DNA of 64,000 nt from assembly GCA_964252035.1 (NCBI GenBank), contig OZ176209.1. The stretch is one strand, 5' to 3'. The stretch's first letter is position 1. Each line of letters opens with the position of its first letter. The notes below the pieces were generated by a model. It saw nothing but the letters and a program-made list of their open reading frames with translations, was not told where the DNA came from and did no database searches. The position numbers and the translations under genes were made by a program. Below are positions 795 through 35,544 of this stretch, piece after piece. This DNA is from Podarcis erhardii (lineage: Eukaryota).

Positions 795-1298
<504 letters not shown>

Positions 1299-1414
1299 TC
1301 AGATCACATCATGCTCAGAGCAATAATTCATTTCAATGCAGCTGCTGTGACTGAACACTTAAATATACAGGGATCATTCCCTCTTCCCGGGGTGTAGCTT
1401 ATGTCATATGCTGA

Positions 1415-2012
1415 GAGTTTCTAGGAGCTGCAGGTGATGGCTGAGTGCAGGTTGGGGACCAAAGGTGGACAAACTACCCCAGAAGGAGCATAATGGTAGT
1501 ACCCCTCCCCCAACACCCCAGGTGGGGGTAGCTGATGGATTTCAAACCCTTGGTGAGTTAGGGACTCCCCCTGTATGCAAAGCAGATGAGACCAATAGTG
1601 GAACCAATGATCAAGAAGGCAGTTTCTGTATGTGCTGTAGAGGGAAGTGAGGGGCAGATGGGACTCATCAACCTAGGAAGATAGCCCATCTAGAAGTAAA
1701 ACTGTGATCCTAAGCCTCTGCTGCCTTGTAGGATATCTTCGGAAGAAGAAAAAGCTAAGTAGTAAACCCTACAAATCCAGTGTGGAATCCCTAAAATGGT
1801 TGGATGGCACCTTGTACACCTCTGACATCACCTGCAGCCAAGTTGGTGCTCTGCTCTCCTTTGGACCGCATCAGTGAGGCCCAGGACCTCCATACATACT
1901 GCCTAGGCTTGCACCCCAGGAAGGTCACTTAGGTGCTGCTAATGCAGCAGTTTGATTTCACCTCCCAGGGGCTCACTCCATTGTCTCTTTAGACAGATGG
2001 ATGCCAACAACA
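1415..2012 (+). mobile_element. Non-autonomous RTE-tailed retroposon, copy 1
   Basis: Extensive similarity to 14926-15440 (e.g. tcaaacccttggtgagttagggactccccctg); 3' end ccattgtctc...gatgccaacaac resembles RTE-clade tails; boundaries approximate. Confidence 0.6.
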
Positions 2013-3459
2013 AAGCCACCCACCCACCCCTTCTTTAACTAAGCATTTGGCCATTTTGAGTCAAGAAATGTGTTGCACAGAGAACATTCTGTTTGGAAAC
2101 GGAAGCATTTTTCTAGGTGACAAGTGTGAGACCCAAGACAGTCTCAAGTTATGGGGATAATTGTCTTTGTGGAATATGCTGAAAAACACCAGCTTAGCTA
2201 TTCTTTTTCCACAGCCTTATAATCACCAGCAGTGTTGATAGTGCATAACTGATGTCACTGAGATTTTGTCCATGAAACTCAGAAGCCTTCATAGGCTGAA
2301 ACTTCTAGTAGATTAGAGTCCCCTAACGTGTGGCTAAACAAGAGTCCTCTGTATCCATCAGCAAAACAGATATTGATTGCTACCCTAAGAGATCCTGCTA
2401 CCTTTAGCCCTTTATTGCTTTCTGTTTCAACACAATGTAAGACGAATGTCCTATACATTGCTGCTGCTTTTTTCCTGTCTACTAACACTTTATAACAATG
2501 TTTAACTTGCCCTTGGCCCAAAATCAGACTCACAAGGTGAATTGGAAAAAGAATTTGAACAACAATCAATGACATTACTAAGGGGGAGAAAGAGAGAGGG
2601 AGGGGGGGAGAGGAACTTGCCTGTATCAAAAAGGGTAGCCAACAATTAAAGCTCTTGCTTTTAGCTCAGGTTATAGTGTTTCAGCAGTTAGAAATATTTA
2701 ACATTTTCCATCAGTAATAACAACATACTACAGTTAATTGACTCAAAGGTTACTGTTAATTAACACATCATCATTGACATATATGCTGCTGAGCCATTTC
2801 CCCCCCAGATGGGAGAACTTAGATATAAAATTATGGTTGCTTGGGCACTGGCTCTATTGAAACAGTGAAATCCCCACTGAGAGAGCAGAGGTCAAAGTCC
2901 ACTGTGGGAATCTTGCACATAATTGGTAGTACTAAGGTCAAAATCCAAACTGCGCAATACGACCAATGACCTTCCCTCTGCTTTGTTTGGTGTTTAGCAC
3001 CAGTGAAATTGCCTTATCAAGGAAAATATCTGAATGCATTCTGTAATTCATTTTGCATTCTAGCAACTACACGTTCCCCTGATCTTTTTCCCACTGTAGT
3101 GATTTGCAGCCAGTGAATCCAGAAACTCCAAAATGATCAGATGGGCTTGACCCCTTCCTCATCTTGATCCCTTCAATTATATCCTCTTCTGAAAGTTTGG
3201 ACAACTGTCAGCATTTGCAAAGAGAAATTTGGATGAGAAGATAACCTGCAACTCCAACTACAACATGCGACTTTGTAACATAATACGGCAGGATTATAAT
3301 GCATAGTGACCATTCTCCATATCTGAGAATTAGAATTTAGGTCAGCCTGATCAGTCCAACTTCTCTCTCTTTTCTGTCTAGCTGCTCCTTTTCAGCGCTT
3401 TATAGCCAGGAAAGACTAGGAGTGCATAACCTTCAATGTTGAGATTTGGACCTCTCTCA

Positions 3460-4101
<642 letters not shown>

Positions 4102-7100
4102 TCATCACTGGTAGACTGTATGCACAGTTTCACTTAAGATTTTTGCCTTCCTTTGCAGCCAGATTTAGAATGTCTTCTCGTGTCTAGTGAGAAGAATCTA
4201 CCTTGTGGTCTTGTGCCCAGTTGGTATGACCCTATATAGGATAGCTTCTTAATAGTCTGTGATTAGACTGATAACCAAACGAGCTTCCTCATGGATGAAT
4301 CCTTGTACTGCCAGATGGATTCCCACAGTGTGAACTTCCTTTTAGCCTTTTATGAGCTAGCAGGGCTAAGGAATAAACATTCTTACAGTATGGTGGGGGA
4401 GAAAGGTCAGCATATTCCCAGAGAGCTTTGCTGCCTGATTCCAGTGTGCTTCAATATAATAGATACAATAAAGCCAAGCGTGATGGAAGAACAACTCAGA
4501 GCTAGTATAGAAAATTGCTAACTCTTTCTAAATTATCAGAATAGTTTTGATAATATTTAATTGGAAACCTTTAAGTTGTTACTTAGAAAGCAAATTATCA
4601 ATTCATTGTGTTTTCTTAAGAACAGGATTTGTGGTGGACAGAGATGATTTTGACCCCAGTACAAATTTTAAGGTATTTAGCATTTTGCAGCCAGTGTCCA
4701 AAGACCCTAGTTACACATGAACTACTAAAATCCATACTACATATCTAAGACCTAAATAATGAAGCCTGAAAAGAGAAACCTTGCACAATTTTCTGAAGGT
4801 CAACAAATAAGCACTGAAAGGATGAAGTAAAGCCGGCAATAGGTTTGAAAGGTGTGTTCCCCCAAAGAAAATGCTCTTCCATCTGCTTCCCTCCGTGGAA
4901 TGAAAGAATCTTAAAACTAGATGGTTTTACCTGATTTTAATAACTTAAAGGTGAATAAATGTTCCCAAAGTCAGCAGCCCTTGATCTACAGTTGAAAAAA
5001 AGCATTACAAACTGCTTTCATTTTCGAAGCACATCGTACATTTTGAATTTGGGTTAAATCCAAAACCAATGAATATGCATATGGACCTGAATACTGATAC
5101 CTAATTCAAGGGCTAAATCCAAATCTTATACCTGTTTCCCACACAGTCTTTGGTATTAAGTAATGTGGTATTTGTTGAACCATTTCAGGTTCCAAACAAA
5201 GTCTGTAATCTGAAGGATTCTTAATAAGTTTCTTCCTCTCAGTTAAGTGAATTGACATCTATACAGGTCCAGCAGATGCTGATTCAAGTTTCTACCCCAA
5301 CTCTCCTAACAAAAGTTAAGCAATAGGCGGTGAGGGTGGGGGTGTTCTCTGGCCTCACAGCAGCCTTTCTACTAAGAAGAGGCCAGGGTCAATAGCATAG
5401 ATGTTACAATGGATGCCATGAACCCAGAAAACAGATCCTGTTGGCACCAGAGTTGGTATTCTCTGTCTAGAGGTATTTAATTCCACTCAGAGTATCTCAT
5501 TCTATGGATGTAGGATGATGCTTGAAAGAACAAGAGGGAAGGGAAAGTGACATGAATTGTGCAAGTGATCTTGCTTTTCTTGGATGCTTGACTGAAGTAC
5601 CATATTAATTATACAGTGATATCTGTGATGATGAGAGCACATTTAGCTGCTTTGTGTACAGGGAAAGGTGAGAATGTATCAGGTAAGGCTATATAGGTGA
5701 CACTCTTCTATGTCTGTTTTAGCAAATGCCATCCTTTCTGCTCTAACCCCTAGTTGAGCACCTCTGGGAAACCACCATTAGTACTGCTACCCCTACCAGA
5801 CATCTGGGTGCATAATTTCCTGAGAATTTTAATTTACACCACAACTCTACTACTATAATGATGGCTGAGAGAGGCAGGGGGACAATGTTACATGTCTTCC
5901 TGAAGGAAACTCCAACAATATCTACTAGGCAAAAATGTAAGGTCATGGTGTGGTTATTTAGGGATACAGGTATGGTTACTCAGGTCTCAAAAGGCAGTGT
6001 GCCTGTGAATGCTCAGCAGAGCAGGTAGGAATTTTTTGTCTCATGAAAAGTAGCATTAACTACGAAACAATAGTCTAAGTGAAATATTCAGCATACTCTA
6101 TGATCTTATGTCAAGAAAAGGTAATGTTACTTTGTGAGATGTTCAGGACTGTAGTAAGATGATCCAGGAATATAAGATTAGGTCTGGGCTCAGTGGCGTT
6201 TAGAGTAAATAATTTATAATGGCAATCTAGGAAGCAAGGGTGTATAACAAAGGCAAGGCTCTTAGGCAAAAGGAAATAATTTCCTCTGTAAATATCATCG
6301 GCGTCTTGTGTTCTGACCCCTAGTCTTTCTTTTTGGTGTGAGTCTATACCCCCTGCCTAGCTTAGCTGCATGTATCCTCATTAACAAAAATAACTCTCTT
6401 CATAACTCACTGCAGAGATGGCTTGGTGGTTCCACTGGAGTACACTTAGACTGAAGTCCTATACTTGCTTATCCAGGAATAGTTCCCTCTGAACTTAATG
6501 GGACTTCTAAGTAGGTCTGCATAGGTTTGTGCTGTTAGCCTATCTTAAACTTCTGTTGTTCCTGCTTTGTCATATCCACATTTTTTTAAAGTCTGAAGCT
6601 AATGCCCCACAGGGATTGTTCACTGAGAAGACGAACAATGTGAGCTCTTTTGGAAACTATTAGTGGGAAAGAAATGTTGGTATGTGCATGCAAGTATTAC
6701 ACGAAACACATCAACATACCATTGCTTCCACTTTTTTTCCTAGTGTATGACTTAACTCAACTTCTTGAACCTCATACTGTAAGAATCACCGCAATGAGTA
6801 ATTTAATGGAATTGGGCCAATATAGGCTACTTCACAAATGACACCATCTGGACTTTGACATTTGTAAAGCTTGTGAATATAGTTAATGTGGTCTGTAACA
6901 TAGGAAAGAGCAACTTAAAATTTAAGTATAGTCCTTTGCAATGTGACTATGACAATTGAATAGCCTGGTCAACATATGACATGACTGTCATGAACTGAAA
7001 TGGTTTTGAGATGTGCATCACAGGTCCTCACATCATTAATTTTTCCCTATGAGTGTTTGGCCTTCTCTATACTGCAAAATAATGGATGTTATATTTTTAA

Positions 7101-31938: not shown

Positions 31939-33460
31939 CGTAGTCTGAAACCAGTGAGACAATGGACAAGATCCTGATGGCATGAAAAAATGGGTTGCAG
32001 TAATAGGGTCCAAGATTACAAAACCATTGTTTGTGAAGGTGGTGCCAAGAACTGGCTCCCATTAGCCTACTATGTTCCAAAAGATCCCAACTGAAACCTA
32101 CTCAGATTAGGGGACATGTAATGAAATCTTCCTTTCCAAAATTATTGGTTTACTCTGCCACCAAAGAAAGATCTAGGAGTGGTGACCCTCCTTATTGGTC
32201 ATAAGCATTGATGCTAGGCTAACAAGCTTTTATATTTACATAGATAAATCAATATACCCCCAAAGGCCAACTGAAATGCACATCCTTTGGTGCCTGACAG
32301 ATTCTGGGCAGTGATGGAGACAGTTGGCATCTCCCCTGAACAGGCGTTCTACAGTTGTCATGCCACAATGGAAAAGGCCATATCCTACCTCCCCACGTTT
32401 CTCATATGTTAATCTTGCTGTTCAAGAAGTACATATGGGCAGATGTTTTACTGAAGCATTTATTGAAATAAATTCAGAAAATGTGAGTCAGAGAGCTTAA
32501 ATGTCAATTTCTCAGACTCACACCTTTTGAAAACATTTTCCTTACAACCCTTGGCAAAGGTTACCCCATGTCGTCATTTAAGTTACATAGGGCTGTCAAG
32601 TTCCAAACTGCTTTTGGGGATTGATCTGGCCCACAAGCTGCTAGCAGGATATCCCTGATCTGAGGCCTTCTATATCTGGCTTCTCTCACAAACATTTCTA
32701 CCTGGGTAGAGATACCCTTTTAAATTACGTAATGTGTCCCTTTTAAATTACATAAAATTGTGACTAGGAAAGAAGATGCGTCTCTTCCATTTCTGCATGT
32801 TTTTGAAGGACAAGCTGCAAGTGATAGAGAACTAATACAGTATAATATAGGTTAGGATCCATATAGCTCGTTTGGTGTACTGAAAGGGGCTTTTCGTTGT
32901 GTTCTCGAACACCTTCCTTTCTTCCTGCCTTCCTTTCCACATGGTAAGTTGCTTTTTAATCCAAGGGAAGCTTACTGTTAGAGGCCATTGAATACCAATT
33001 GCTGGGAATCACAGGTGCGGAGAATGCTGTTGCACTCAGCTTTGGCTTGCAGGTTTCTCATTGGCATTTGGTTTGTCACTGTGATTCAGCATGGTTTTTC
33101 CTATGCTCTTACGCATGCACCCTATGCATAAATGCATGCAGCCCGAACAGTGACAAGTGCCATATCTGGTATCGGTAGCTTGAGTACAAATTGCTGTACA
33201 AGATTGTACTACATGGCTAGCCCTGAACTTTGGCTTGCTTCCTACTCCCACTCCACTCGCACACAAACTTCCCTGTCGTCCCCCCACCATTTATCTACCT
33301 TCTCCATTTGTTGATATGAAGCATATTAACTACTTAGTAATCTTCACTTTTGACATAACTGTATTGTATTGACCCTCCTGCTAATTACTAAATGCAGTGG
33401 GATTTACTTGTGTATTCTGTAGGATGGATGGAAAACAGATTCTTCTTTGCCATGTTTTTC

Positions 33461-34611
33461 TTTTTCTTTTTTTAACATAATTTTTATTAGCAGGCCAATC
33501 CAATCACATTATTTCCAAATCATAATTCCAAATTATACAGCCAACTTTTTAAATTTATTGGGGGTACCCATACATCAAGCTCTGAACGAGGATCAAAACA
33601 TCACTTCTGTTCCTGCTTTTATCAAACAGTTCTATCCAGATCTGTCCAGATAGTCTCTTTATTACTTTCTTCGTCTTCTTGTTGTTATCATATATTCCTT
33701 TCTTTGCGATCTCTGATAGTCTTCACAAGCGGTTTAGAAACAAACAACATCTGCGTGGGTTTTGCACAGTCCAAAAGTCATATCTCATAAGGACAGCCGC
33801 CATTCCTCCCCTTCTTCAAAAATTTATCCCCGGTCTGTCCTATTAATTTTCCCAAGCTTGCCACGTATTTCACAAAGGGGCTCTGCCAGGTTATCACATT
33901 TCAATCCATCATTCACATTCCAATGACCCTGGTCCTCCTCCCCTCGCTTTTCTTCGACAAGCCTGTCTTAGCAAGACGCCATTAAAAACTGCGTCATAGA
34001 ATTTTTCCTCTGCTCTCCGATATTTACCAGTCCTCTCTTCAATCAATAATTCACTCCACACAGCTCTTAAATTCTTGCTTCCGATTAGTAAAAGGCAACA
34101 ATTCGTCTCTTTGGGGTGGAGGTTTATAAATACTCACATAGGCAAAGAAAATAAAAGTTTTTTCCTCCACCCCCCCTCTTTTTTCGCTCCGCACGTACCA
34201 GTCTCATAATGGTGGTTCATCGCTTGATTTATTTGTCTCCTCCCGTCGCTCCAATCACAGAAATGCATTAATCAGCAGCCTTATCTCTCGAACTTTGTTT
34301 GATGTATGTGCTTCAGCTTCTTTTCCAATTATATATTTCCAATTATTTTTCCGTGCTGAAGCAAACCGGGGCGCTGATTGGAGACGGCTTCAGGAAGAGC
34401 CGACTTCACAGAGGGCTTGTGCCAAATGATCCTCACCCCCGTCTTTCAAATCGGGGGGTGCATTGTGACTACCGCTGGCAAGGCAGCCCCCCCATATCCT
34501 TGGGGGGGTAGGAAGACTGCATACTTCCCATAGCAGCCTCTTAATTACCTCGTGTGGGTCGGAGAGATGTTATTGTCGGCCATCTTCCAATGTGCCACCT
34601 GGTGGCCCCCC
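33461..34611 (-). mobile_element. 1151-bp L1-like non-autonomous retroposon, apparently full length, 17-bp TSD
   Basis: TSD TCTTTGCCATGTTTTTC at 33444-33460 and 34612-34628; 5' GGGGGG...AAGATGGCCG motif; AATAAA plus A-rich tail at 3' end; CpGs retained; no ORF >=60 aa on the element strand in the track. Confidence 0.85.
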
Positions 34612-35544
34612 TCTTTGCCATGTTTTTCATTCCCTTTGCACAATCTGCCAGGATTTATATTTCTTCTGGTGAAAACATGAAATGCTTAGTGCTTTCATGT
34701 TCTTCTAAGGTTTGTTGTTCTGGCATTATCCACTAAAGAGTTGTAAGAAAGCTGCAGGCCAGTGATATGATCTAGTTGTGATAAAGGAAATGGTTCTCAC
34801 TTGAAATGGTTTCAAGGGATAACAGGGAATTTACCCTGTGTACAAAGGCAGAATGTCTTTTAAACCAAATCTGCAAACAGCCTCATTTACAGCCTATGAT
34901 GTTTTCCCATCAAATAGCACCAGAGGGATATTAGTTGCAGGTCCTTACCAAATAATATGGGTTTTTCATGGGTAAGTGCTCAGGAACTAGTAAAATTGGA
35001 GGAGGAGGGTAGTGGTGATTGCAGTATCCCAGCCCTCAAAATGTTTAGAACCAGGTCCTGGAGAAATGTAGGTAATTATTCCTTTTACAAGCAACTCCAC
35101 AGCAATAAGCACTGCTGTTTTGAATATTGTTCCTGTGTTGCATGCACCTATTGTTTCTACAATTTCGCTGGTGAATAATATACTCCTTCTTGTACCAAAA
35201 TACCTGTGCCATCTTGAAGCCTATTTTTAAAGTTAATGTTTTATTTTTATTTTACTTTTTTTAGACTTGATAGTTTCTTTACTGTACTACTGAAAGAGTT
35301 ACGTGAGCCCACTCCATTAAAGATAAATAGATCCTACCCCTCCAGCTTAGCAACTGCTGATAATTTTAGACTGGGTTGTCTTTTGTCTTACCTTTTTCAC
35401 CTTTGCAATCCACCTCACCAGTACTGGGTCAAAAAAAGAGAAATGGCACAGGAGTGACATAGGCTGCAGTCCTGTGCATATTTACCTGGAAATAAGGCCC
35501 ATTGGGGCCATGATAGATCCCTGAGGATGGATCTATAGTAGTAG

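Follow-up and report, generated by a model that had tools for sequence, protein, structure and literature searches.

An ORF-less 1.15-kb retroposon family with L1 insertion marks in a lizard genome

The window analysed here, a 64-kb stretch of lizard DNA, contains a sequence that lacks any long reading frame and is bounded by two copies of a 17-bp repeat. This raises the questions of what the sequence is, which machinery inserted it and from what it descends. The window copy is a member of a family of ORF-less retroposons of ∼1.15 kb, present in at least 900 copies in this lizard genome.

The window copy and its insertion site

The element and its flanks comprise the following features:

33461..34611, minus strand: full-length ORF-less retroposon copy of 1151 bp, subfamily Y, 94.4% identical to the subfamily consensus
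34612..34628, minus strand: target-site duplication (TSD) on the 5′ side of the element, exact 17 bp, single copy at the empty site
33444..33460, minus strand: TSD on the 3′ side of the element, exact 17-bp direct repeat
34606..34611, minus strand: 5′ G-run, six G in the window copy, of differing length among copies
34592..34605, minus strand: putative CTCF-consensus-like 14-mer, matching the consensus quoted in the available text of 10.1101/024620
34577..34586, minus strand: YY1-like motif AAGATGGCCG, a predicted Pol II start-positioning element, kept across subfamily consensuses
34410..34590, minus strand: predicted multi-helix 5′ RNA domain, with pairing across copies
33474..33575, minus strand: conserved 3′ block, between-subfamily divergence 0.11, with 673 exact genome matches (control 5)
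33483..33488, minus strand: polyadenylation signal AATAAA, at the same place in all consensuses
33461..33473, minus strand: A-rich tail, 13 nt

A sequence-only reading had proposed an apparently full-length, ORF-less element with a perfect 17-bp TSD, a G-run at its 5′ end and an AATAAA with an A-rich tail at its 3′ end, and all of these are found on the minus strand. The window copy starts GGGGGG...GGAAGATGGCCGAC, its head being ordered as six G, the 14-mer, ATTGG and AAGATGGCCGAC, and ends in AATAAA, 10 nt and the 13-nt tail; no frame on its sense strand is longer than 74 codons between stops. The 64-kb window has just three separate exact repeats of at least 17 bp whose copies are spaced 100–8000 bp apart, and the TSD pair is one of them. 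The observed/expected CpG ratio is 0.65 in the window copy versus 0.19 for the window, in line with the CpG retention noted earlier.

The window copy is a genuine insertion. Indeed, one contig in each of runs X14 and X16 joins position 33443 to 34612 and retains a single copy of the 17-bp repeat, so that two related organisms (G and H) have the empty site. The filled site is seen in X1, possibly the source species and then not independent, and in X5, where a flank contig enters the element 3′ end by 43 bases. Flank contigs of X4 and X10 enter the element head by 29–30 bases, just below our 31-base rule, and are only suggestive of its presence, while contigs of X12 leave the flanks uncovered. 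Presence or absence at this locus differs between related organisms, and copies are therefore usable as phylogenetic markers. About 29 kb from the element, window positions 798–4101 (minus strand) contain two frames that look like exons of a gene for a leucine-rich-repeat protein (LRRNT and LRR_8), which we take to resemble LRTM2.

Copy number, length and subfamilies

Exact matches to the 5′ head number 83, 337 and 926 genome-wide by three patterns (control 0), and those to the tail motif 168 and 673 by two patterns (controls 0 and 5). These counts are lower bounds, at least 926 heads, and the objection that the sequence might be single-copy falls away. A DNA search returned at least 43 matches to the element, mostly full length, from the 40 of 1955 candidates that were scored; among the matches listed, the nearest other copy is 97% identical to the window copy. 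Of 136 loci picked by head, two were lost to the pattern; in the remaining 134, the family tail is reached at 1.0–1.25 kb in 103, further off in 20 and nearer in 4, and is absent from the stretch in 7. In the longer copies the family sequence mostly picks up where it had stopped, and those inspected contain nested CR1, L2-type, L1 or short repeat insertions. Length is uniform, with a median of 1149 bp between TSDs and a 5–95% range of 1132–1171 (n=62). About half of the loci picked by tail (n=50) are full-length, and many are 5′-truncated with TSDs of their own.

Trees, on which groups were delimited by eye, show at least 13 subfamilies of 3–22 copies each, and at least one further type was seen. 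Subfamily consensuses differ by 4–36%, while copies lie 2.4–7.3% from their own consensus; many source copies must therefore have been active side by side for a long period. Since subfamilies so far apart each contain young copies, the family derives neither from retrocopies of one gene nor from a one-off internally deleted L1, but propagates itself. Divergence between subfamilies is lowest in the head (0.08 over positions 1–100) and in the last 100 bases (0.11), and reaches 0.32–0.37 over positions 651–850. CpG sites diverge by 13–14% versus 3–4% for other sites (four subfamilies), and the retained CpGs therefore reflect youth rather than protection.

Several loci bear marks of later events. 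Nested inside family copies at L060, L082, L086, L273 and L077 are CR1 copies that are nearly intact, one of which has an ORF1 of the esterase type, and an L2-type frame of 1031 codons; all are younger than their hosts because they lie inside them. Four family copies near each other on contig 2 (L209, L210, L211 and L043) contain identical internal insertions, which suggests local segmental or tandem duplication, and adjoining copies at L088 and L182 stand head-to-tail and belong to different subfamilies. Run X19, guessed to be RNA and not counted as evidence, contains family contigs.

L1 mobilisation and the 5′ head

TSDs of at least 10 bp flank 75 of 90 full-length family copies, with a mean of 16.3 bp in the 61 copies whose TSD is 12–22 bp long. 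Among these 61, the target is Y|RR in 41 (background 12%), a pyrimidine occupies position −1 in 50, and positions +1 to +5 are purine-rich. The AT|GAAAAA junction of the window copy, which had been likened to the L1 endonuclease site TT|AAAA, is present as described; however, the family site is a loose Y|RR-A-A, and exact TT|AAAA occurs in only 1 of 61 copies. The genome also contains intact L1 with a 1260-aa endonuclease–reverse transcriptase (EN+RT) ORF2 frame. Intact ORF2 frames of 1257–1260 aa are found in two related families (L093, L171 and L174–L177), indicating that L1 was recently active, and relatives of the genome's L1 ORF1 carry Podarcis names, as would suit a lacertid. In the 11 L1 loci, among 34 and mostly of one family, that have a 12–22-bp TSD, the mean TSD is 17.0 bp, a pyrimidine is found at −1 in 11 of 11 and the target is Y|RR in 7. 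The main L1 family ends in AATAAAAATTAT, then T/A and an A-run, and the family likewise in AATAAAAATTAT-(A)n.

TSDs, target and tail like those of the genome's own L1 insertions, together with the 5′-truncated copies, support the earlier proposal of L1 mobilisation and are best read as the work of L1 ORF2p in trans. The label ‘L1-type' holds for mobilisation but not for ancestry, as no homologous L1 was found. We put at roughly 80% the probability of the mechanism overall, in which a Pol II-transcribed non-coding RNA is moved by co-resident L1. In such a scheme, the G-run/YY1 head would serve as an internal Pol II promoter and regenerate the 5′ end, and AATAAA would yield a true poly(A) tail. 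ORF2p from co-resident L1 would bind this tail and nick T-rich sites (5′-TTTTTC/A on the plus strand for the window copy), priming reverse transcription, while the folded 5′ domain would aid survival of the RNA or its arrival at ORF2p.

Simple patterns found no A or B box in eight consensuses, each of which contains 4–8 sense-strand runs of at least four T. Pol III terminates at T-runs, and those inside the element therefore argue against Pol III transcription. Taking the T-runs, the missing Pol III boxes and the conserved head together, an internal Pol II promoter in the head is likely. The available text of PMC5381506 describes mammalian L1 as starting with a G-run followed by the YY1 motif AAGATGGC, an arrangement that the family head resembles, whereas Anolis L1s start GACTTCCGGTG.. 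or GGGNGCTGCGCATGC. Many of the L1s sampled in this genome start GACTTCCGG; the family head resembles mammalian rather than sampled lizard L1 heads.

Unlike mammalian L1, the family has a CTCF-like 14-mer that separates its G-run from its YY1-like motif; this 14-mer fits the CTCF core consensus as quoted in the available part of 10.1101/024620. A candidate CTCF-consensus motif in about half of the unbiased heads is new in this analysis. Among heads chosen without regard to the motif, 25 of 58 and 13 of 25 match exactly the degenerate form scored, which we presume to represent CTCF. Only part of the heads match because several subfamilies have one G fewer. In the most frequent head variants, the differences fall where we take CTCF to be degenerate. 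A G/T switch within the 14-mer is found in two lineages, and a CTCF-plus-YY1 head with a longer spacer gave 0 matches (longer spacers only). If bound, the CTCF-like head could shape lizard chromatin.

The first 200 bases of the element are predicted to fold into five helices. Applied to 43 copies, this model, which was drawn from the same sequences that it was scored on, pairs 96.6% of 1748 cells versus 41–52% when slid. Two-sided changes occur in 6 of 41 pairs in these copies, and 12 of 154 heads show an additional G–C to A–U switch. The changes fall on a handful of branches and represent few independent events. RNAalifold, run on the copies, recovered the structure only in part, and the head does not reach significance by thermodynamic z-score (−0.97 for the window copy, −0.3 to −2.1 for consensuses). 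The predicted 5′ helices with a few compensatory changes are new in this analysis, and selection on them is suggested but, for the above reasons, not established.

Origin, competing readings and known relatives

The longest sense frame in 131 copies has a median of 80 and a maximum of 155 codons, compared with 64 and 120 in shuffled sequences, and no ORF is conserved among family copies. One sense frame, of 77–127 codons, is uninterrupted in copies from four subfamilies. Searched against 1.84 billion proteins, it gave five matches, to one element copy and four repetitive proteins, and no protein relative; the best ESM Atlas score, 0.77, is a lead only. A conserved coding frame is therefore rejected, the matches being an element copy or repetitive proteins only. 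By eye the body recalls ORF1 or the C-terminal end of L1 ORF2, a likeness that is likewise rejected, since none of 13 consensuses scores above 2.8 bits with profiles of ORF1 (20 homologues) or the ORF2 C-terminus (35 fragments). A PF02994 search of the genome found 0 of 18 candidates, its controls being silent too, and carries no weight. On these comparisons the family appears to encode no protein.

The family most likely arose by decay of an L1 or half-L1 lineage that is now lost or lies outside those sampled. No parent was found among the few L1 lineages, Tx1-clade aside, that were sampled in this one genome, a scope that makes a lost or rare parent possible. In one of these lineages, many sampled L1s start GACTTCCGG, and 29 loci other than the query (30 with it) show no meaningful 5′ UTR homology to the head. 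The ∼24 terminal bases are all that 35 diverse L1 3′ fragments have in common with the family, longer matches being neighbouring element copies, and this A/T-rich stretch could be convergent. Among candidates, L136 and L137, where L1 ORF2 fragments adjoin the element, are insertions into older L1 fragments, and L060, L082, L086 and L273 owe their apparent autonomy to the nested CR1 insertions. At L289, an L1 copy with ORF1 in frame into mid ORF2 and an internal deletion (2362–4559, plus strand) sits directly behind a 3′-truncated family copy. This only head-plus-L1 join is rejected as a parent junction and is a one-off, because L1s related to that copy carry unrelated 5′ UTRs. L066 holds, nested in a family copy, a 2109-bp element (4209–6317, plus strand) with a GACTTCCGG-type L1 head, a 230-codon frame without significant match to one L1 ORF1, and a 3′ part that by eye comprises the last ∼30 codons of L1 ORF2 and a 3′ UTR. 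It is an internally deleted L1 derivative and possibly represents a half-L1-like family.

The strongest competing account shares the mechanism proposed above and differs on origin: the family would be a bipartite internal-deletion derivative (5′ UTR plus 3′ UTR) of L1/Tx1, or a half-L1 with decayed ORF1, whose parent persists at low copy number or in relatives. We consider this plausible at somewhat less than even odds. The L1-style ends, the 2.1-kb deleted derivative at L066 and the frame open in four subfamilies all favour it, whereas the low profile scores, the noise-like matches of that frame, the one-off join at L289 and the finding that 0 of 134 heads lead to intact L1 ORFs speak against it.

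More doubtful is that the family belongs to an undescribed class, a long-lived Pol II-transcribed non-coding parasite of L1 without a LINE parent. Equally tentatively, the YY1/CTCF head might act as the promoter and the covarying 5′ RNA domain might bring the RNA to ORF2p. By an analogy that we hold just as loosely, this domain might play the role of the Alu domain in Alu. At the same low confidence, the family might, as a by-product, have spread hundreds of consensus CTCF sites, some of them species-specific, across lacertid genomes.

It is improbable that the family is a Pol III SINE whose small-RNA head escaped recognition. Although several helices with some covariation in the first 200 bases recall RNA-derived heads, the window copy has no tRNA, in agreement with the sequence-only reading, and no Rfam match at E≤1, and five other loci gave only four sub-threshold Rfam matches, all in flanks. 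The missing A/B boxes and internal T-runs, the 1.15-kb length and the canonical AATAAA further oppose it. Lacking also any detectable ORF1 or remnant of it, the family is neither a classical SINE nor HAL1, as first proposed.

Mobilisation by a non-L1 LINE is more improbable still. RTE Bov-B, CR1 and L2 are all abundant in squamates, and some family members contain nested copies of CR1 or of L2 type; however, lacertid Bov-B ends in (CAA)n according to the available text of PMC13295347. CR1 here ends in (TCTATGAT)n, an 8-bp microsatellite, whereas the family has the poly(A) end and 16–17-bp TSDs of L1.

Least probable, and largely refuted, is that the copies all stem from a single cellular transcript, mRNA or lncRNA. 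Processed pseudogenes also carry a poly(A) signal, tail and TSDs, and AAGATGGC-type starts are common in housekeeping genes. However, at least 13 subfamilies 4–36% apart need many source copies, no protein relative exists among those searched, and GT..AG ends in 0 of 14 internal deletions also reject splicing as their cause; a remote origin from cellular RNA is possible.

The family, which is probably mobilised by L1, is real and well supported as a non-autonomous non-LTR retroposon, and corresponds to no type of lizard SINE or half-LINE that was tested. In its available text, PMC5786205 confines ORF-absent bipartite LINEs to RTE, Ingi, Vingi and R2, with L1 yielding only HAL1, of the ORF1-present type; that of PMC6740152 includes CR1 as well and describes these elements as rare. 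An ORF-less family of more than 900 copies that bears L1 insertion marks and comprises many parallel subfamilies would fill a gap in the former list, as far as that text goes. Alternatively, it would show that a Pol II non-coding RNA without an RNA-gene head can parasitise L1 over the long term. In either case it provides a natural experiment on what, beyond poly(A), an RNA requires to be mobilised in trans. No such family was found in the available portions of PMC7245038, PMC5753468, PMC10670947 and PMC7983390, nor any description in the literature searched, outside subscription journals, Repbase Reports and supplements; it may be present in Repbase/Dfam as an unnamed library entry.

Bipartite LINEs or SIDEs (RIME, NARTc, Bov-A, RTESINE, R2 SIDE and Persaeus) resemble the family, in the accessible account of PMC5786205, in having no ORF, LINE-type ends and presumed Pol II transcription, which is likewise probable here. 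The family differs from them in its L1 hallmarks, its 1.15-kb length (∼270–320 bp in Persaeus) and in that the analysis revealed no autonomous partner whose ends are homologous to its own. HAL1 is also non-autonomous and L1-dependent (PMC5753468, available text). However, it encodes ORF1p, of which the family has no detectable frame or remnant. SVA/LAVA elements of hominoids, transcribed by Pol II, are in the descriptions available likewise non-coding, longer than 1 kb, poly(A)-ended and trans-mobilised by L1, but the family is without VNTR-like internal repeats or an Alu/7SL part and has many long-lived parallel subfamilies. By analogy, it would work like SVA or a SIDE, and tests for SINE and HAL1 fail.

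Squam1 (Sauria), Squam2 and Squam3 are, like the family, non-autonomous retroposons of lacertid genomes. Squam3, unlike the family, is described in the available text of PMC7983390 as Ther1-derived, 218–271 bp long and tailed by (TAAA)n or (CTT)n. Squam1 has a 3′ end in common with Bov-B, and the family is set apart from the Squam SINEs by their descriptions, so far as these are available.
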